From a virus (lineage: Duplodnaviria; Heunggongvirae; Uroviricota; Caudoviricetes), in IMG/VR virus record IMGVR_UViG_2690316028_000012: a DNA stretch of 11,390 nucleotides. One strand, written 5' to 3'. Of this stretch, positions 1 through 11,030 are shown in pieces (position 1 is the stretch's first letter; each line of letters starts with the position of its first letter). The notes beneath the pieces are model-generated. The model was not told where the DNA came from, ran no database searches, and worked only from the letters and a program-made list of their open reading frames with translations. Made by a program: the position numbers and the translations under genes.

Positions 1-1260
1 ATGCCAAAACTCACAGACATGCAGATCCGCGCATGGATAAAGGCCGGGGAGCGATTCGAGGGACGCTCTGACGGTAACGGGCTTTATCTTTCATACCGCG
101 AAAACTACCAGACCCCCGTCTGGCGATTCCGCTATAAATTCGCAGGGAAACCCCGCGCCATGCTGATTGGCTCATATGCCGAGCTATCACTATCAAAGGC
201 CAGAGAGACAGCCAAAGAGCTATCGGCGCGTGTTGCGCTGGGTTATGACGTCGCGGGAGAGAAGCAGGAACGGAAAGCCGAAGCACTGGCGAAGATGGAA
301 GCAGAGAAGAACGCCATGCGCGTTTCAGAGCTTGCCGCTGAATACTTTGAGCGTCAGATCCTCCCGCGCTGGAAGCACCCCGATATACTCCGCCGCCGTA
401 TCGACAAAGATATAAACCCCTGCATTGGCAGCATGAAGGTAGAGGACGTGAAACCGCGCCATATCGATGACATGCTGAAAGGTATTGTTGACCGTGGAGC
501 GCCGACCATAGCAACGGACGTGCTGAGATGGACGCGCCGCATATTCGACTACGGAATCAAACGGCACGCGCTGGAGATTAACCCATGTTCAGCCTTTGAG
601 GTGGCAGACGCCGGAGGGAAAGAAGTTGCCCGTGACCGCTGGTTAACCCGCGATGAGTTAATCCAGCTATTCAAAGCCATGCGCACGGCTAAGGGATTCA
701 GTCGCCAGAACGAAATCACGTTCAAATTACTGTTAGCGTTATGCGTCCGCAAAATGGAGTTATGCGCCGCCCGCTGGGAGGAGTTCGATTTTGATAAAGC
801 TGTATGGCGCTTGCCAGAGGAACGCAGCAAAAACGGCGACGCTATAGACATCCCATTAGCACCGCCAGCCGTCGAATGGCTGAGAGAGCTTAAAACGTTC
901 TCATGCAACAGCGCATGGGTACTGCCAGCCAGAAAGATGCAAAACCGCATGATCCCACATATTCAGGAAAGCACTTTACCCGTAGCACTGGCTAAGGTTC
1001 GCGCCGAAATGCCGGATGTGCCTAATTTCACGATTCACGACTTCCGACGCACCGCACGTACTCATTTAGCAGCGTTGGGTGTTGATCCTGTCGTGGCGGA
1101 ACGATGCCTCAATCATCGCATTAAGGGCGTAGAGGGGATTTATAACCGCCATAAGTATTTTGATGAGCGTAAAGCAGCACTGGCACAGTGGGCTGATCTG
1201 CTGGTGGCACTGGAAAGCGGAAAAGACTACAACGTAACGCCTCTCAGAAGGGCGAACTAA
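1..1260 (+). CDS. int: Tyrosine-type site-specific integrase, P4/CP4-57 family
   Basis: 419-aa ORF. N-terminal region is typical of P4-like integrases (GLYLSY..WRFRYKF). C-terminal catalytic signature is present: R in LALCVRKMELCAARWEEFDF, H-x-x-R in HDFRRTART, and LNHR...GIYNRHKY carrying the catalytic Tyr. Confidence 0.9.
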   Translation: MPKLTDMQIRAWIKAGERFEGRSDGNGLYLSYRENYQTPVWRFRYKFAGKPRAMLIGSYAELSLSKARETAKELSARVALGYDVAGEKQERKAEALAKMEAEKNAMRVSELAAEYFERQILPRWKHPDILRRRIDKDINPCIGSMKVEDVKPRHIDDMLKGIVDRGAPTIATDVLRWTRRIFDYGIKRHALEINPCSAFEVADAGGKEVARDRWLTRDELIQLFKAMRTAKGFSRQNEITFKLLLALCVRKMELCAARWEEFDFDKAVWRLPEERSKNGDAIDIPLAPPAVEWLRELKTFSCNSAWVLPARKMQNRMIPHIQESTLPVALAKVRAEMPDVPNFTIHDFRRTARTHLAALGVDPVVAERCLNHRIKGVEGIYNRHKYFDERKAALAQWADLLVALESGKDYNVTPLRRAN

Positions 1261-2435: not shown

Positions 2436-2639
2436 ATGAACACCGACACTATTCCTACAAAAGGCTATATCAGACGCTTCCGCCTGGCTGAATTGCTGGG
2501 CGTTAGTGTATCCACCATTGATCGCAAAGTTCGCAGCGGCTCGCTACCGCGCCCGGTAAAGCTGGGGGAGAAGATTACCGCCTTTGATGCGGTAGAGATT
2601 AATAACTGGCTGGCGGAGCGCCGGGGAAAGGTGGCGTAA
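2436..2639 (+). CDS. alpA: AlpA-family phage transcriptional regulator (excisionase-like HTH)
   Basis: 67-aa protein with the characteristic AlpA HTH core RLAELLGVSVSTIDRKVRSGSLPRPVKLGEKITAFDAVEINNWL. Confidence 0.85.
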   Translation: MNTDTIPTKGYIRRFRLAELLGVSVSTIDRKVRSGSLPRPVKLGEKITAFDAVEINNWLAERRGKVA

Positions 2640-3085: not shown

Positions 3086-3919
3086 ATGAACATCGAAAAA
3101 AGCAGATTAATTTCTGAGGCCGCCCCTCATCTGAACGCCTATCAGGGCACAATTAACGGTAATGAATTTGCCGCAATTGTCCCGGTTATTCCTGGTCATA
3201 TCGGTGGGCGTGAAACCAATATTGTTAGCGCAAAAGCGTTACACAAAGCGTTGGGCGTGGGAAAAGACTTCTCTACATGGATCACTGATCGCATCTCTGA
3301 ATATGACTTCACCATTGGGCACGATTACTCAGTCCATAAAACAATTTCCCCAAATCTGGGGAAAAGCCCGAATGGCACGGCTTACAGCAAGATTAAACAG
3401 TCTGGCAGACCCGGCAAAGACTATCTGTTAAGTGTCGGAATGGCGAAAGAACTGGCGATGGTCGAACGCACCGAACAGGGCCGCGCTATCCGCCGTTATT
3501 TCATCCAGTGCGAGGAAGAATTACAGCGTAGCGTGCCTGAAATCGCCGCCCGCTATCGTCGCCAGCTAAAAGCCCGTATCGGTGCCGCCAACCTGTTTAA
3601 ACCGATGTGCGTAGCGCTGGAAAGCGCCCGCGCAGAACAGGGTAAACAGACGCAGGCTCGCCACTACAGCAACGAGAGCAACATGATCGCCCGTATCGTG
3701 CTGGGTGGCATGACGGCGAAGCAGTGGGCGCAGGCAAATGGCATTACTGGCGAACCACGGGACAGCATGAACGCAGCACAGCTTGAACACCTCGCCTATC
3801 TCGAAAGCACCAATATCACGTTAATTGATATGGGCATGGAATATGAGCAGCGCAAAGGAGAACTCACCCGCCTGTCGCAACGCTGGCTCGCTAAACGTCT
3901 GGAGGTAAACCATGCGTAA
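3086..3919 (+). CDS. Phage antirepressor-like protein with N-terminal AntA/AntB-type domain
   Basis: 277-aa ORF. N-terminal segment SAKALHKALGVGKDFSTWITDRISEYDFTIGHDY resembles the AntA/AntB antirepressor domain consensus as recalled; not searched. Confidence 0.65.
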   Translation: MNIEKSRLISEAAPHLNAYQGTINGNEFAAIVPVIPGHIGGRETNIVSAKALHKALGVGKDFSTWITDRISEYDFTIGHDYSVHKTISPNLGKSPNGTAYSKIKQSGRPGKDYLLSVGMAKELAMVERTEQGRAIRRYFIQCEEELQRSVPEIAARYRRQLKARIGAANLFKPMCVALESARAEQGKQTQARHYSNESNMIARIVLGGMTAKQWAQANGITGEPRDSMNAAQLEHLAYLESTNITLIDMGMEYEQRKGELTRLSQRWLAKRLEVNHA

Positions 3920-4094
3920 CCACAATCCGATGCCGGGAAGCCGTTACAAGGACAGTCACGGGGCTGTAGTGACCGTACAGCGCGTCGAGCATAACCGTGT
4001 GACCTTTTACCGCGAGGGCTATCAGTCGCCATGTGTTCAGCCTTTGGAGAGATTCGTTAATGAGTTCGTGGAGGTGCGCCGTGATACTGAATGA
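3912..4094 (+). CDS. Small hypothetical protein (possibly the DUF4222-like small prophage protein family)
   Basis: 60-aa ORF. Start overlaps the upstream stop in ATGCGTAA, with GGAGGT 5 nt upstream. The family assignment is from memory only. Confidence 0.5.
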   Translation: MRNHNPMPGSRYKDSHGAVVTVQRVEHNRVTFYREGYQSPCVQPLERFVNEFVEVRRDTE

Positions 4095-4381
4095 ACCTGC
4101 CGCCCAGAAAGAAGCCTTTAATCTGGCTGGCATGTTGTCAAAAGTTGACATCTGCAACCTTACAAAACCTGATATTGATACCGCAGCGCCCGGAGTTCCG
4201 TTACCAGTACGCGAGGCGCTTACCCTCAACAAAAAGATGGTGAGCCGTGCACAGGAAAAACTCTTAAAGGGTTACGGTTTTATCTGGTATGACCACCTAG
4301 CAGAGAAAAGCTGTTATAGTCCAAGCGTTGCTGCAAAATCAGCAACCGGGATTGGAACCCCGAACACACTAAGGGCGACAC

Positions 4382-4404
4382 AGACGCCGAAAGCGTCTTT
4401 TTTT
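4382..4404 (+). terminator. Candidate intrinsic terminator inside the operon
   Basis: Stem AGACGC (4382-4387) / GCGTCT (4393-4398), loop cgaaa, followed by a run of seven T to 4404. Confidence 0.5.
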
Positions 4405-4593
4405 GTGTCCGATCACCACGCACATCAAATCAGCGGCCTTGCCCGTACTGTATCTATGGTGGCGTTAGTGGGGCTACGTTCGCGTAGGCCGGTTTCCTTT
4501 GTGTCCGGTAGTTCCAACCCTGCTAACGTCACCGCCACTATTAAGATTGGAACCTTATGCGGTGACTCCTTAAACACAAAGGAGGCTGCCATA

Positions 4594-4785
4594 ATGGCTA
4601 CTACCCCAACCCAAAAACCATCATTTATCTGGTTAATCGCAGCAGTTCGCCGCGATATGCCGACAATTACCGCCAAAATTCACCATATCGCCGCAGAGAC
4701 TGAGCAGGAAGCCCGCCGCATTCTGGCGCGGGATCACGTTTGCTTTTTTGCCGGACGTATTCGCACAGGGGGCGCACATGCTTAA
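4594..4785 (+). CDS. Host cell division inhibitor Icd-like protein (63 aa)
   Basis: Strong RBS aaaggagg 8 nt upstream of ATG 4594. Product MATTPTQKPSFIWLIAAVRRD...EQEARRILARDHVCFFAGRI resembles Icd-like proteins as recalled. The tracker's 250-aa ORF 4033..4785 is the same frame running on upstream with no credible start. Confidence 0.6.
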   Translation: MATTPTQKPSFIWLIAAVRRDMPTITAKIHHIAAETEQEARRILARDHVCFFAGRIRTGGAHA

Positions 4786-5849: not shown

Positions 5850-6191
5850 ATGATTACTAAAAATTTCCGACTGAATGCGCTGGCGAATAAGTATGCGTCG
5901 GCACTGTATAACCACATTACCTCCACCAGCGGCGGGGACTATTTCATGGTTGATGCGGACGGCCTCGCCGTCCGTGTGGAAATCGTCAATGGAGTAAAAG
6001 GCGTTCGCAGCCTGATCGATAGCTACACACTGGCAGCCATGAAAGTGTTCTACCCGCAGTGGGAAACCGTGGGGATCGAGCTTCTTGATCGTTGCGTCAC
6101 TAAGGACGGATTGACTGACGTCGGGCGCGAGATATGGCAAAGCATGATTAATGATATGGGCGCGACCGTGGCAGGAGGCAACCATGCGTAA
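5850..6191 (+). CDS. Hypothetical protein (113 aa)
   Basis: RBS gaggga upstream of ATG 5850. Stop overlaps the primase start in ATGCGTAA. Confidence 0.55.
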   Translation: MITKNFRLNALANKYASALYNHITSTSGGDYFMVDADGLAVRVEIVNGVKGVRSLIDSYTLAAMKVFYPQWETVGIELLDRCVTKDGLTDVGREIWQSMINDMGATVAGGNHA

Positions 6192-8949
6192 TATCGACCT
6201 TATCCGCGAAGTGACCAGCGCCGCAGCAGGGCGCTGGCCTTATGTGCTGGCTGGATTGTCTATCGACGTGCCTGATTCATCGCGCCGCCATTCTCCATGC
6301 CCTGCATGTGGTGGAAAAGACCGTTTCAGATTCGACGACAACGGGCGCGGTAGCTTTATCTGCAACCAGTGTGGCGCTGGTGACGGGCTGGATTTAATCA
6401 AGCGGGTTAACAACTGCGACACTACGGAGGCGGCACAGCTTGCCGCTGACGTGCTGGGTATTGATTACCAGGCAGCGCAAACCGACCCGGTGGCAGCGAG
6501 CCATAGAAGAGAGCAACTGGAAGCTGACCGCCAGCAGCGTGAGCAGGAGCGCCAGAAACAGGCAGCAGAGGACGCAGAGCAGCGAAGGGCTACGTTTGCC
6601 CATCTGTATGCCGGAATGCGCCAGAGTGCCACACAGGGCGAATCTGATTACCTGCAATCAAAAGGGCTGACCGGGTTTAACTATCCGGTTATGCCGGATG
6701 GTTCGTTATTGCTGGAGCTGGTGGACGAATCCGGCGCAGTGGCAGCAGCGCAAACCATTACACCGCAGGGAGAGAAGCGACTCCTGACAGGTTCAGCAAA
6801 GCGCGGGGCATATCACGCCGTAAACGCGCCAGAATCGCCGCAGAGCGTTTTAATTGCCGAGGGGCTGGCAACCGCTTTATCAGTCCACCTGATGCGCCCT
6901 GACGCGCTGACAGTGTGCGCCATTGATGCGGGCAACCTGCTACCCGTTGCCGAAGTGATGCGCCGGATATATCCAGCCACGCAGATTATCATTGCCGCAG
7001 ATAACGACCACCAGCAGGACGAACAGGCGAACACGGGCAAAGATGCCGCAGAGAAAGCCGCCTTATCCGTGGCTGGCTGGGTGGCACTGCCGCCGACAGA
7101 CTACAAAGCCGACTGGGACGACTACCGCCAGCAAAACGGGCTGGAAGTCGCTACGGCTGCGTTTAACGATTCGATGTACCAGATTCAAGGGGAAGCCGTG
7201 AAACCGCGATTGCAAGCCATTGAGGGCGGTAAAACTGACCATCCAGAGAAAGATCCACTAAAACCCCACATTGAGAGCCGCAAAGATGGCGTTTTCTGGG
7301 TAACGCCGAAGGTGGACAAGGAAAGCGGGGAGATCGTCAACGCTGAAAGCTGGTTATGTTCCCCGTTGGAGGTTATCGGCACGGGACGCGACGACAAAGA
7401 TCAGTATCTTATTATCTCATGGCTGGCATTCGGTGCAGGCATACCGACAACAGCGGCTATCCCGCTGGCTGATATTGGCGAGCGTGAAGGCTGGCGCACC
7501 CTGAAAGCTGGTGGCGTCAACGTCACAACGAAAAACAGCCTACGGGCGATTCTTGCCGACTGGTTACAGCGAAGCGGCTCGCGTGAATTGTGGCGCGTTG
7601 CTCATGCTACAGGCTGGCAGTGCGGGGCATACATCATGCCGGACGGGGAAATCATCGGCACACCTGAGCGGCCTGTTTTGTTCAGCGGGCGCAGTTCAGC
7701 CGCTGCCGGGTATACCGTAGCAGGAACGTCGGAAAGCTGGCGTAACAGTGTTGCGCGGCTGGCATACGGTAATTACGCGATGATGACAGGCATCGCCGCA
7801 GCACTGGCAGCGCCATTAATCGGGGTGGCAGATCGTGACGGATTCGGGATTCATTTTTATGAGCAATCGAGCGCCGGGAAAACAACCACGCAGAACGTGG
7901 CGAGCAGTCTATACGGCAACCCTGATGCCTTGCGCCTGACGTGGTACGGGACGGCGCTGGGGCTGATAAACGAGGCCGCCGCCCACAATGACGGGCTGAT
8001 GCCACTGGATGAAGTCGGACAGGGCGCTGACCCGATAAGCGTTTCTCAGTCTGCCTATGCCCTGTTTAACGGCGTGGGGAAATTGCAGGGAGCAAAGGAA
8101 GGAGGCAACCGGGATCTGAAACGCTGGCGCACCGTGGCAATCAGCACCGGGGAAGTGGACTTAGAAACCTTCATCGCCACCGCCGGACGCAAGACCAAAG
8201 CCGGGCAACTGGTGCGCTTGCTGAATATCCCGTTAAGTAAGGCGGTGCGCTTTCATGAACACCAGACAGGGAAAGAACACGCCGACGCGCTGAAAGATGC
8301 TTATCAGCACCATCATGGCGCTGCCGGGAGGGAGTGGATCAGATGGCTTTCAGACCACCAGCAACAGGCGATTGATGTCGTTCGTGAGTGTGAAGCCCGC
8401 TGGCGCAGTCTAATCCCTGCCGACTATGGGGAACAGGTTCACCGTGTAGGGGCAAGATTTGCCATTCTGGAGGCCGCTTTACTGATGGGTGGCGTGGTTA
8501 CTGGCTGGGATGCTCAAACGTGCCGGGATGCGATACAGCACGCCTATAACGCATGGCTAAAAGAGTTCGGCACGGGGAACAAAGAGCACCAGCAGATCAT
8601 CGAGCAGGCGGAGGCATTTTTAAATGCCTATGGCCTGAGTCGATTCGCGCCGCTGCCTTACGACCCCGCCAGCCTGCCGATTCATAATCTGGCTGGATAC
8701 AGGCAGCGCGGAAATCATGACGATTCACCGATAACGTTTTACACGTTCCCCGACACTTTCGATAAGGATATTGCTAAGGGGTTTAACAGGCAGCAGGTGG
8801 CCCGCGTCCTGAAAGAATCGGGGATGCTTACCCCTTCGGCAGACGGAAAAAAATTTCAGAGGAAAAGCCCGCGCATTCAGGGGAGGCAGATTAACGTTTA
8901 CGTTTTGCAATTCCTGCCGGATGGGGAGGAAAGCCAGCCAGAGCAATAA
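6184..8949 (+). CDS. Replication primase-helicase (P4 alpha-like: zinc-ribbon + TOPRIM primase + DUF927/D5-type NTPase)
   Basis: Start placed at ATG 6184 (AGGAGG 5 nt upstream) rather than the tracker's 6151. C4 zinc ribbon CPACGGKDRFRF...FICNQCG. TOPRIM motifs LIAEGLATALS and IIIAADNDHQ. P-loop-like YEQSSAGKTT and Walker-B-like LMPLDEVG in the C-terminal half. Confidence 0.9.
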   Translation: MRNIDLIREVTSAAAGRWPYVLAGLSIDVPDSSRRHSPCPACGGKDRFRFDDNGRGSFICNQCGAGDGLDLIKRVNNCDTTEAAQLAADVLGIDYQAAQTDPVAASHRREQLEADRQQREQERQKQAAEDAEQRRATFAHLYAGMRQSATQGESDYLQSKGLTGFNYPVMPDGSLLLELVDESGAVAAAQTITPQGEKRLLTGSAKRGAYHAVNAPESPQSVLIAEGLATALSVHLMRPDALTVCAIDAGNLLPVAEVMRRIYPATQIIIAADNDHQQDEQANTGKDAAEKAALSVAGWVALPPTDYKADWDDYRQQNGLEVATAAFNDSMYQIQGEAVKPRLQAIEGGKTDHPEKDPLKPHIESRKDGVFWVTPKVDKESGEIVNAESWLCSPLEVIGTGRDDKDQYLIISWLAFGAGIPTTAAIPLADIGEREGWRTLKAGGVNVTTKNSLRAILADWLQRSGSRELWRVAHATGWQCGAYIMPDGEIIGTPERPVLFSGRSSAAAGYTVAGTSESWRNSVARLAYGNYAMMTGIAAALAAPLIGVADRDGFGIHFYEQSSAGKTTTQNVASSLYGNPDALRLTWYGTALGLINEAAAHNDGLMPLDEVGQGADPISVSQSAYALFNGVGKLQGAKEGGNRDLKRWRTVAISTGEVDLETFIATAGRKTKAGQLVRLLNIPLSKAVRFHEHQTGKEHADALKDAYQHHHGAAGREWIRWLSDHQQQAIDVVRECEARWRSLIPADYGEQVHRVGARFAILEAALLMGGVVTGWDAQTCRDAIQHAYNAWLKEFGTGNKEHQQIIEQAEAFLNAYGLSRFAPLPYDPASLPIHNLAGYRQRGNHDDSPITFYTFPDTFDKDIAKGFNRQQVARVLKESGMLTPSADGKKFQRKSPRIQGRQINVYVLQFLPDGEESQPEQ

Positions 8950-8975
8950 TCTTTTTCACGTGCGAGGTTTTTTGT

Positions 8976-9233
8976 GGTGGTTCAGGTGGTTCAGGTGGTT
9001 CAGTAAGTAATTGTTATTGATTTATAATGTTTTTTTGTAAGAAATTGAACCACCACTGAACCACCAAACGGGTATTTTGAACCACCAGAGAGAAACGGAT
9101 TATTTTCACTGGCTGGCAGTGAACCACCAAGAAGGGCGACTGAACCACCAGATAAATTTAAAAGGTGGTTCAGCAAAACCCAGAGTTGGCGCGGCCTAGA
9201 GGGGTACTGAACCACTGAACCACCTGAACCACC
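8976..9233. repeat. Iteron cluster (GGTGGTTCAG / CTGAACCACC, ~12 copies in both orientations) flanking an AT-rich segment; probable replication origin
   Basis: Forward copies at 8976, 8985, 8994 (tandem, 9-bp period) and 9164. Reverse copies at 9046, 9056, 9078, 9120, 9140, 9207 (partial), 9216, 9225. AT-rich stretch at 9004-9046. Sits immediately 3' of the primase gene. Confidence 0.8.
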
Positions 9234-9337
9234 AACTTTTTTGTTTATATACCAATAAATCTGGCGAAGGTGTCCCACAATAAGACGGAGCCGGGTAATC
9301 TTCATTAGCAAAACTAATAATTCGAGGTATTCGCAAA

Positions 9338-9799
9338 ATGACAGCACAGATATCAGCCTACGGGCGGCTGGTGGCAGATCCCCAGACCAGAACGACAAAC
9401 AGCGGCGGCAGCATGGCAATGGGACGGTTAGCGGTGGCACTGCCCTGCCATGCAGCAGAGGGCGGAGAGGTTACTTTCTGGCTGGGCGTGGTGGCATTCG
9501 GCAAACAGGCCGACGCACTGGCAGGGCACGTTAAAGGCGATTTAGTCAGTGTTGCCGGAGCGATGCAGATCAATCAGTGGACGGGCAAGGATGGCGGTAC
9601 ACAGCAAGGTTATCAGGTAGTAGCCGACAGTGTGATCAGCGCCAGAACGGTACGCCCCGGCGGGAAGCGGGCCGAATCAGTCAAAGCAAGCGGAGCCAGC
9701 AGAGGCCACGCAACACAATCCGCGCCGGGATGGGAGTTATATAACACCCCTGATGATTTTGACCAGCGCCCGCCGTTTGATGATGAAGATCCATTCTGA
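9338..9799 (+). CDS. ssb: Single-stranded DNA-binding protein (SSB)
   Basis: 153-aa ORF. OB-fold region aligns by eye with E. coli SSB (GRLVADPQTRTTNSGG; VVAFGKQADALAGHVKGDLVSVAGAMQINQWTGKDGG). Acidic C-terminal tail ends DDEDPF (canonical SSB tail is DDDIPF). Confidence 0.8.
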   Translation: MTAQISAYGRLVADPQTRTTNSGGSMAMGRLAVALPCHAAEGGEVTFWLGVVAFGKQADALAGHVKGDLVSVAGAMQINQWTGKDGGTQQGYQVVADSVISARTVRPGGKRAESVKASGASRGHATQSAPGWELYNTPDDFDQRPPFDDEDPF

Positions 9800-9810
9800 G
9801 GGGGATACAC

Positions 9811-10122
9811 ATGGTAAACGACAGGAAAGCCGAGGAACTGGAAGCAAAGGGGCTGTATCGCAGGGCAGCTACACGCTGGCAGGAAGTCATGATGATTTGT
9901 GCTGAGGACGATGATCGGGAATGGGTAAAGCAGCGACGTGATACGTGTCTGACGAACGTGAAGCGCCCGCCAGTGAAAACCGATGATTACGGCGATCTGC
10001 ATAAAGCAGTCACTGAGACACAACACCGCATGGGGATAGCGCAACCAAACGGCAACGCCTTCCGATTAAACGGTGGTAAGAAGCAACGACAGGCCACCAG
10101 CGGGGGCGACAGTTCGCAGTAA
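9811..10122 (+). CDS. PerC-family transcriptional regulator-like protein
   Basis: 103-aa ORF. N-terminus KAEELEAKGLYRRAATRWQEVMM matches the PerC/Pch family signature as recalled. RBS gaggggga upstream. Confidence 0.7.
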   Translation: MVNDRKAEELEAKGLYRRAATRWQEVMMICAEDDDREWVKQRRDTCLTNVKRPPVKTDDYGDLHKAVTETQHRMGIAQPNGNAFRLNGGKKQRQATSGGDSSQ

Positions 10123-10747: not shown

Positions 10748-10750
10748 CTT

Positions 10751-10769
10751 GCAATTGATAATCATTATC
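10751..10769. promoter_or_regulatory. Fur-box-like palindrome (gcaattGATAATCATTATC)
   Basis: 16 of 19 positions match the Fur consensus GATAATGATAATCATTATC, with a perfect GATAAT-c-ATTATC inverted hexamer core. Target transcript unknown. Confidence 0.4.
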
Positions 10770-11030
10770 TTTTCGGGTCCTTTCCGGCGATCCGCCCTGT
10801 TACGGGGCGGCGTCCGCGCAGATTCTCGATATATATGAGAATTTTTCTGGTTTTTGCCGTTTCCGTTCTTCTTCATGCTATCTCTCTGTTTTTGCAGGAA
10901 ACACACCCTCAAAAGAAAGGGAATGGCTAGGCCTTAAAAACGGTAATTTTCCATTTGTTGTTTCCTTTCTCTGTTTTTCGCCTGGAGTTCGTCATGGAGG
11001 TTAATAAAAAACGCCCTGTGAATCATCGCT

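Follow-up and report, generated by a model that had tools for sequence, protein, structure and literature searches.

What is the function of a dense, bidirectional array of short repeats that follows directly on the gene of a primase-helicase? This question is raised by positions 8976 to 9233 of the DNA analysed here, a stretch of 11,390 nucleotides that we call the window at its full length. A preliminary description had proposed a probable origin of replication. Comparison supports this proposal through the homology of the helicase, about 70 arrays in relatives, the constancy of the iterons, a cassette that is exchanged as a unit and a published origin layout. [quoted passage not shown]

Judged by its gene content, the element is a Gram-negative PICI of ~11–13 kb, because it contains int, alpA, antA, ash/icd, a fused primase-helicase, ssb, perC and a lambdoid cos region. 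The genes assigned by Pfam scans all lie on the plus strand and are given here together with the cos-like region:

1–1260, plus strand: tyrosine integrase (Pfam Arm-DNA-bind_3, Phage_int_M and Phage_integrase)
2436–2639, plus strand: AlpA regulator, downstream of int (Phage_AlpA, E=3e-8)
3086–3919, plus strand: AntA (Pfam)
4033–4785, plus strand: Ash/Icd-like protein (Pfam)
6184..8949, plus strand: fused primase-helicase Pri-Rep (Pfam PF08273, PF13362 and PF06048)
9338..9799, plus strand: the element's own SSB (Pfam SSB, E=6e-14), which belongs to the replication module
9811–10122, plus strand: PerC (Pfam)
10750–10988: lambdoid cos-like region, matching the end region of phages mEp237 and HK225, with the cosN-like sequence GGGGCGGCGTCCGC

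The gene order int–AlpA and the single gene direction are annotated likewise in RefSeq relatives. Several ORFs preceding the primase gene have no Pfam match, and no structural gene was matched by Pfam among the scanned ORFs. The window comprises 11.4 kb. Its relatives in E. coli comprise ~12–13 kb and are sited between yicC and dinD; these islands share 91–93% identity with the window across 75–78% of its length. Whole relatives are recorded as circular 'plasmid' entries of 12–22 kb, which is consistent with a replicating episomal phase. Alternatively, these entries represent assembled excision products.

The repeats are built on a 9-bp core. Searching both strands of the whole window, we find 12 copies of GGTGGTTCA/TGAACCACC in 8976–9233, 11 of them exact and one with a single mismatch, and no copy of GGTGGTTCA with up to one mismatch on either strand outside this region. 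As null model we used 200 dinucleotide-preserving shuffles of the whole window. They contain 2.0 matches on average and 6 at most, and 12 matches were reached in 0 of the 200. The about twelve copies in both orientations reported previously are thus recovered. The 10-mer given in the preliminary description results from C being favoured at position −1 in 9 of the 12 sites. From left to right, the sites are:

8976, 8985 and 8994 (8976..9002), plus strand: left iteron triplet, three copies of GGTGGTTCA head to tail with a 9-bp period
9046, 9057 and 9078 (9046..9086), minus strand: iterons 4–6, TGAACCACC, which together with the left triplet form the 6-site core module
9120 and 9141, minus strand: iterons 7 and 8, TGAACCACC
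9164 (to 9172), plus strand: iteron 9, GGTGGTTCA
9208, 9216 and 9225 (9208..9233), minus strand: right iteron triplet, TGAACCACt + TGAACCACC + TGAACCACC, the right end of the array

The array was described as lying directly 3' of the primase gene, and indeed it begins 26 nt past the Pri-Rep stop codon, with the primase ORF ending at 8949 and the first iteron starting at 8976. The three tandem copies with 9-bp period had been seen correctly at 8976, 8985 and 8994, but the second triplet at 9208–9233 had been missed. This right triplet contains the inexact copy AGTGGTTCA (9208–9216), which shares one nucleotide with the neighbouring site. Together, the two end triplets form a perfect 20-nt inverted repeat (8975–8994 and 9215–9234). 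A further inverted pair is formed by the sites at 9141 (minus strand) and 9164 (plus strand), which are separated by an AT-rich spacer of 14 bp. The gaps between the non-tandem sites amount to 11, 21, 42, 21, 23 and 44 bp and are near whole helical turns.

The proposed DNA-unwinding element is the AT-rich core at 9003–9045. With 84% AT over 43 bp, compared with 48% AT window-wide, it is the 43-mer of highest AT content across the entire 11.39 kb. The preliminary description had placed the array around an AT-rich stretch of ~40 bp. The stretch itself is confirmed, but it is central only to the left six sites, with three plus-strand sites to its left and three minus-strand sites to its right, and not to the array as a whole. 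The AT cores of relatives from four iteron classes have a length of 42–45 bp and an AT content of 77–90%, and they have a TTGaTTTATAAgG-like block in common. In the window, the following blocks are kept in addition to the iterons:

9017–9029: block TTGATTTATAATG within the AT core, kept across iteron classes
9109..9119: non-iteron block CTGGCTGGCAG, directly 5' of site 7
9173..9197: non-iteron block GCAAAACCCAGAGTTGGCGCGGCCT, kept in relatives with GAGACAAC, TGAACCAAC and TGAACCGAC iterons

With small variants, the CTGGCTGGCAG block is found in the 12-site origins of at least four iteron classes. The retention of non-iteron blocks inside the array suggests, as far as sequence conservation can indicate, that additional factors are involved. 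In consensus searches, DnaA boxes and IHF sites were no more frequent than expected by chance, and the array contains neither. A terminator scan of 8850–9450 yielded one terminator-like match, which lies inside an iteron and is at chance level. An RNA element was considered as well and rejected. The Rfam scan of 8800–9500 gave only sub-threshold miRNA-like matches, which are caused by the inverted repeats.

Is this arrangement specific to the window or a general property of related elements? Scanning one genome per species yielded 78 loci from ~30 Enterobacterales genera. An array is located downstream of the primase homologue in nearly all of them, i.e. in about 70 relatives. It starts ~21–47 nt past the primase stop codon in nearly all relatives, mostly at 24–30 nt, and most of them keep the position of the left triplet (+24 to +30 nt past the stop) with other iteron sequences. 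The offsets of the sites are constant at +26, +35 and +44, followed by the AT core and by 97, 108, 129, 171, 192, 215, 259, 267 and 276. Two forms of the origin occur, with 12 sites or with 6 sites, and the short form, which is present in many relatives, corresponds exactly to the first 3+3 sites.

This single site layout carries at least 12 distinct iteron classes. The commonest class is TGAACCAAC; others include GAGACAACA, TGAACCGAC, TAACCCGT, TTATCCC, TGACACACT and GTTACCAGT. The classes TGAACCAAC, TGAACCACC and TGAACCGAC differ by single bases. The distinct initiator specificity that had been suggested for the window is therefore a correct assignment but not an unusual one, given at least 12 iteron classes in the Pri-Rep family. 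The array is present in relatives with or without a downstream ssb gene, many array-bearing relatives having none, and its length varies independently of ssb. In Serratia sp. H1w, two elements (L022 and L036) carry the same iteron class. This speaks against incompatibility avoidance as a strict driver of iteron diversity.

The TGAACCACC class is absent from the 78 loci. A megablast search of 5,426 complete E. coli genomes with the origin region matched only the ssb-proximal flank, so that at megablast sensitivity the class is absent from complete E. coli genomes, and the origin region had no match in the phage collection. We find the class in Citrobacter sp. Cpo085 (L081), at a different integration site, in metagenome scaffold L082 and in seven further metagenome contigs. 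These seven were kept after a both-orientation filter; six of them could be aligned and one (L160) did not align. Exact scans of viral and metagenome collections for triple iterons returned mostly unrelated Gly-Gly-Ser coding repeats. Wherever the reading frame can be traced, the copies of the TGAACCACC class share the protein sequence of the CTD.

Purifying selection acts on the iterons while the spacers drift. Among three independent copies of the TGAACCACC class, variable positions amount to 0 of 107 in iterons versus 21 of 151 in spacers (p=9e-6). For nine copies, the values are 2 of 107 versus 23 of 152 (p=2e-4).

The comparison with the E. coli D5 island delimits a block of sharp divergence. 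From ~8640–8650 to 9233 the nucleotide identity between the window and this island is 42–68%, compared with 93–100% on either side. The diverged block comprises exactly the last ~100 primase codons and the array, and iterons and spacers are diverged equally within it. Its left boundary does not coincide with the end of the primase gene but lies within it, where the CTD begins. In E. coli elements with another iteron, the genes preceding the primase gene are nearly identical to those of the window, and the 100 nt between array and ssb are 94–100% identical to E. coli elements. From these alignments, we conclude that CTD codons and iteron array are swapped together as one specificity cassette of ~590 bp. 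The left part of the cassette is the following region:

8645..8946, plus strand: CTD coding region (~100 aa), proposed to be iteron-recognizing and winged-helix-like

The preliminary description had recommended comparing iteron sequence and primase across relatives. Carried out for 65 loci, which are related and in which the two parts are linked, this comparison shows that CTD similarity tracks the iteron class. With the similarity of the protein body regressed out, the similarity of the last 80 aa still tracks the class: the observed value was not attained in any of 2000 label permutations, a count that is not a true probability because the loci are phylogenetically related. The association is also confounded by the adjacency of the two parts, since a recombination event that exchanges one of them will usually bring the other along. 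Xenorhabdus offers a pair, L078/L080, in which a change of iteron goes with no more than six substitutions among the final 80 residues.

Pri-Rep has a length of 921 aa from the start MRNID, which is also the start of the RefSeq relatives; the mechanical ORF opens at 6151. The order of its domains is Zn-ribbon, Toprim, DUF927 helicase and CTD. DUF927-type fused primase-helicases are very widespread in Enterobacterales, with >2000 homologues scored. The N-terminal ~330 aa of Pri-Rep share 34% identity with the P4 alpha primase over 338 aligned positions (E=2e-42). By sequence, residues 413–815 match SaPIbov1 Rep (PDB 8tch, E=4e-8) and, more weakly, residues 508–661 match SCCmec Cch (5dgk). In the fold search with a model of helicase and CTD, significance was reached by 5dgk (E=6e-12) and 8tch (E=4e-11) alone; this AF2 model has a mean pLDDT of 65, and its ATPase core is modelled poorly. 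Cch and SaPIbov1 Rep both belong to the DUF927 family (PMC7581432). By this homology in sequence and fold, Pri-Rep is a Rep-type helicase, which by analogy would load itself.

For the CTD, the evidence for a winged-helix fold is only suggestive. In the AlphaFold model of helicase and CTD, the last ~120 residues show pLDDT values of mostly 74–92 in blocks of 10 residues, with one early block at 53, and the extreme C-terminus is disordered. The order of secondary structure elements in the modelled CTD is beta-beta-helix-helix-beta. Foldseek returned a weak whole-chain match to 5vfx, a wHTH accessory protein that binds oriT in the pCW3 relaxosome (probability 0.99, E ~0.3); as its query range is unreported, this match need not lie within the CTD. 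When modelled alone with AlphaFold, the CTD has a pLDDT of 53 and was for this reason left out of the fold search. A profile search of PDB sequences with the CTD alignment gave no match. Iteron recognition by a winged-helix CTD would agree with the modelled order of secondary structure elements, the weak 5vfx match, the covariation with iteron class and the cassette swap; the poor model of the isolated CTD and the negative PDB search call for caution.

How would such an origin work? After induction, Pri-Rep would use its C-terminal ~100 residues to bind the 9-bp iterons TGAACCACC and would assemble on the opposed iteron sets, presumably as one or two hexamers. It would then melt the AT-rich core of 43 bp at 9003–9045 and load itself as the replicative helicase, with no need for a separate loader. 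Priming would be carried out by its own Toprim domain, and the remainder of replication by the host polymerase together with the SSB of the element. In this mechanism, CTD and iteron array would represent a co-adapted unit that moves between elements as one cassette of ~590 bp.

Several other readings of the array have to be weighed against this one. The array could be an origin whose iterons are recognized by another protein, e.g. a small element protein, a helper-phage factor or a host factor, and the CTD would then diverge with the array merely through adjacency. The contiguity of the cassette, which confounds the CTD–iteron association by linkage, leaves room for such a reader, as do the weak winged-helix assignment and the ORFs of unassigned family before the primase gene. 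However, these pre-primase genes are near-identical in E. coli elements with a different iteron, the cassette boundary lies inside the primase gene at the CTD start, and six amino acid changes in the last 80 residues accompany the iteron change in Xenorhabdus L078/L080. The CTD is also the iteron reader in the homologous SaPI Reps (PMC9371898). A reader other than Pri-Rep is unlikely. It is quite unlikely, too, that initiation takes place elsewhere and that the array is an auxiliary cis element similar to P4 crr, or that it controls copy number or incompatibility by titrating or handcuffing the initiator. Such a role has its precedent in P4, where the cluster 3' of alpha is crr and ori is located 4.5 kb away, and the right-hand six sites, dispensable in many relatives, could serve control. 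Against it, the strongest AT-rich stretch of the window sits inside the array, the origins of PICIs and SaPIs map to exactly this position, and the window contains no second iteron cluster (up to one mismatch) that could act as ori.

The location of the array in the intergenic space between primase and ssb genes, together with the strong conservation of the 100 nt from array to ssb (94–100% in E. coli elements), could also point to operators for ssb-perC or to autoregulatory sites of the primase operon instead of an origin. This is very unlikely. The array follows the primase gene also where ssb is missing, its length is independent of ssb, the promoter scan of 8850–9450 found no promoter-like site of the sigma-70 type, and 12 sites in two orientations around an AT core are an atypical operator layout. 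Besides its probable role as origin, the array may have a secondary regulatory role. The least probable reading regards the repeats as functionless, i.e. as a product of chance or slippage, as a Gly-Gly-Ser coding remnant or as part of a minus-strand ORF at 9000–9440. Three successive copies of GGTGGTTCA indeed read Gly-Gly-Ser, exact metagenome matches are mostly coding repeats, and a minus-strand gene of 101 aa is called over the equivalent region in L081. The comparative sequence data effectively refute this reading: the sites occur in both orientations with conserved spacing, iterons are invariant where spacers vary, the identical layout is found with unrelated iteron sequences in ~70 loci, and the region matches no Rfam family. 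The minus-strand ORF is ruled out as a gene, because its frame is not conserved in relatives, where the stop-free stretch has a median of 66 aa.

Beyond the identification of the origin, a more general and still tentative idea is that CTD and array form a portable cassette with a fixed scaffold of 6 or 12 sites, which enterobacterial PICIs have diversified into at least a dozen orthogonal specificities. We regard this generalization as possible, with the odds somewhat against it. If it is true, the relatives would represent a natural series for a 'recognition code', including classes that differ by a single base and minimal pairs such as L078/L080. The 6-site and 12-site forms would then mean the loading of one versus two hexamers, and the blocks TTGATTTATAAgG, CTGGCTGGCAG and AAACCCAG..TGGCGCGGCC would indicate sites for priming or for host factors, which are not known from any PICI origin. 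Many orthogonal pairs of initiator and origin on one scaffold could serve as primase-dependent conditional replicons. The sharp edges of the cassette and the single-base variants of the iteron make the protein–DNA specificity directly testable.

Among known systems, iteron plasmids of the pSC101, F, P1, R6K and RK2 type resemble the window in that repeated initiator sites lie beside an AT-rich unwinding element and in that initiator and iterons are co-specific. Their iterons are direct repeats of 17–22 bp in one orientation, usually accompanied by DnaA boxes, and their Rep proteins recruit host DnaB. In contrast, the sites of the window comprise 9 bp and occur in both orientations, and the initiator itself is a helicase-primase.

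The preliminary description had taken phage P4 as its frame of reference. The P4 type-I repeat that it named, TGTTCACC/GGTGAACA, agrees with the annotated P4 record, and the window motif does differ from it: the P4 iteron comprises 8 bp, and the window motif is TGAACCACC. As a frame of reference, however, P4 does not hold. Only the primase part of Pri-Rep is P4-like, with homologous Zn-ribbon and Toprim domains, whereas its helicase is of DUF927 type and that of P4 is D5_N/DUF5906/Pox_D5 (D5/SF3). Both systems fuse initiator, helicase and primase in one protein, and P4 alpha has a C-terminal origin-binding domain. In each system, short iterons of both orientations follow closely on the 3' end of the gene for the primase-helicase. 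The annotated P4 record lists this P4 cluster as crr and not as ori. P4 needs both clusters, ori and crr, 4.5 kb apart, whereas the window has a single cluster.

SCCmec Cch is the structural prototype of DUF927 and the best fold match to Pri-Rep (5dgk). Cch2 binds to direct repeats that lie downstream of the gene encoding it (PMC7581432). SCCmec differs from the window element in that it is not a phage satellite and in that its primase partner is an A-family polymerase pair and not a Toprim domain, and no iteron array of comparable size is known for Cch.

For SaPIs, it is textbook knowledge that the initiator gene is followed closely by iterons on both sides of an AT-rich core. On SaPI origins, both PMC7581432 and PMC9371898 cite Ubeda et al. 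2007. SaPI Reps use a winged-helix domain at their C-terminus to bind 6–12 iterons directly downstream of rep, and the Rep helicase loads itself at the AT-rich centre, for which a double-hexamer model has been proposed (PMC9371898). The window shares the layout of a SaPI origin, which is located just downstream of rep and has 6–12 iterons that are opposed across an AT-rich region. It differs from SaPIs in the host, which is Gram-positive for the latter, and in the iterons, which are penta- or hexanucleotides in SaPIs compared with a core of 9 bp in the window. SaPIbov1 has Pri and Rep as two proteins; in the window they are fused, with a primase part of P4-alpha type. A further difference from SaPIs is found in the AT core, which lies in the left half of the 12-site array, and in the extra conserved non-iteron blocks.

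In 2018, a layout like that of SaPI origins was also described for Gram-negative PICIs (Fillol-Salom et al. 2018, ISME J, PMC6092414). This study places the Gram-negative PICI origin in the region directly 3' of the replication gene and reports one such origin, that of EcCICFT073, as functional. The pri/origin pair of EcCICFT073 has since served non-replicative gene delivery as a conditional origin that depends on the primase (PMC11338833). In the literature searched, we found no functional test of a Gram-negative PICI origin of DUF927 type. EcCICFT073 shares with the window element int, alpA, unidirectional genes, pri, ssb, perC and cos. The locus order pri – iterons – (hyp) – ssb – perC is that of the window, and directly 3' of pri, two iteron sets of opposite orientation stand on either side of an AT-rich region. 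The two elements differ in their initiators, with 584 aa and D5_N/DUF5906/Pox_D5 domains in EcCICFT073 compared with 921 aa and Zn-ribbon/Toprim/DUF927 in the window, and in their iterons, which are of CTGTCTACC type in EcCICFT073 and TGAACCACC in the window. In the text of the papers searched, the latter is an unlisted and to this extent new repeat sequence. Since this kind of origin is already known, our finding mainly provides the correct annotation of the window element; as new members of the known kind, it adds the TGAACCACC iteron class and, for a Gram-negative PICI, an initiator of DUF927 type.

Between the window and the E. coli D5 island (L002), identity is 42–68% within 8645–9233 and 93–100% outside this segment, with sharp boundaries on both sides. 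The iteron array and the ~100 terminal codons of the primase gene have been swapped jointly, as a single cassette of ~590 bp. A minimal natural pair for a change of iteron is found in Xenorhabdus, where L078 carries TGTTACCAGT and L080 carries TGTTACACC. Within the final 80 residues of their primase-helicases, no more than six positions are substituted, and these six are candidate specificity residues. Elements that share a genome can have the same origin specificity, as that of Serratia sp. H1w contains two elements of the window's family (L022 and L036) that both belong to the iteron class TGAACCAAC. Two further relatives, L016 and L050, have iterons in evident decay (TGAACCAGC, TAAACCAAC, GGAACCAGC and the like), pointing to elements that are degenerating and possibly immobile.

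Three blocks within the origin that are not iterons are kept in relatives with different iterons:

9017–9029, TTGATTTATAATG, conserved non-iteron block
9109–9119, CTGGCTGGCAG, conserved non-iteron block
9173–9197, GCAAAACCCAGAGTTGGCGCGGCCT, conserved non-iteron block

These blocks could act as a site for a host factor or for priming, or as a GC clamp. The number of iterons can vary inside one iteron class (L010–L065 and others), in which a short origin of 6 sites, arranged as 3+3 around the AT core, coexists with a long origin of 12 sites. It is tempting to read the short and the long form as accommodating one putative hexamer versus two.

When viral and metagenome collections were scanned for exact matches to the tandem triplet at 8976–9002 (GGTGGTTCA x3), the loci returned (L084–L220) were mostly unrelated coding linkers, on giant-virus and marine contigs. 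The coding linkers are explained by the triplet itself, because it translates as Gly-Gly-Ser. Real-looking copies of the window origin were retained by a site-count filter on seven metagenome contigs, six of which aligned to the window origin. A minus-strand ORF of 146 aa crosses the iterons (window 9000–9440), and its counterpart in Citrobacter (L081, 9829–10134) is annotated as a 101-aa gene. We rejected this ORF as an artefactual gene call arising from the repeats, since its frame is not kept in relatives.

Some database records filed as circular, non-mobilizable plasmids from E. coli and K. pneumoniae are PICI-like elements, namely L222 (NZ_CP148430.1, 12,152 bp), L223 (CP031370.2, 19,229 bp) and CP031371.2. 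The E. coli record encodes int, antA, DUF4222, an Icd-like protein, a TOPRIM/DUF927 primase and perC. For K. pneumoniae, the gene table lists an integrase-like DUF4102 protein, an antirepressor, DUF4222 and PerC; no primase CDS appears in this table, which is itself incomplete. Each of these records contains a related origin and therefore fits an excised episomal form.

Contig L006 (CACSKA010000004.1), labelled Chryseobacterium sp. 18061, harbours an Enterobacter-type island, and the primase of this island shares 83% identity with that of the window; the assembly is probably contaminated or mislabelled. Directly after ssb, the window carries a PerC-family regulator gene (9811–10122). According to published work (PMC6092414), PerC homologues borne on PICIs activate the LEE pathogenicity island of some E. 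coli.

The segment 10750–10995 of the window is a predicted lambdoid cos region, with 80–82% identity to the end region of phages mEp237 and HK225. It includes GGGGCGGCGTCCGC at about 10805–10818, which is similar to the lambda cohesive end. The ATG at 10995 begins a reading frame whose first residues, 'MEVNKK...', resemble the N-terminus of the small terminase Nu1. Taken together, this resemblance to lambdoid phages implies that the element would be packaged by a lambdoid helper.
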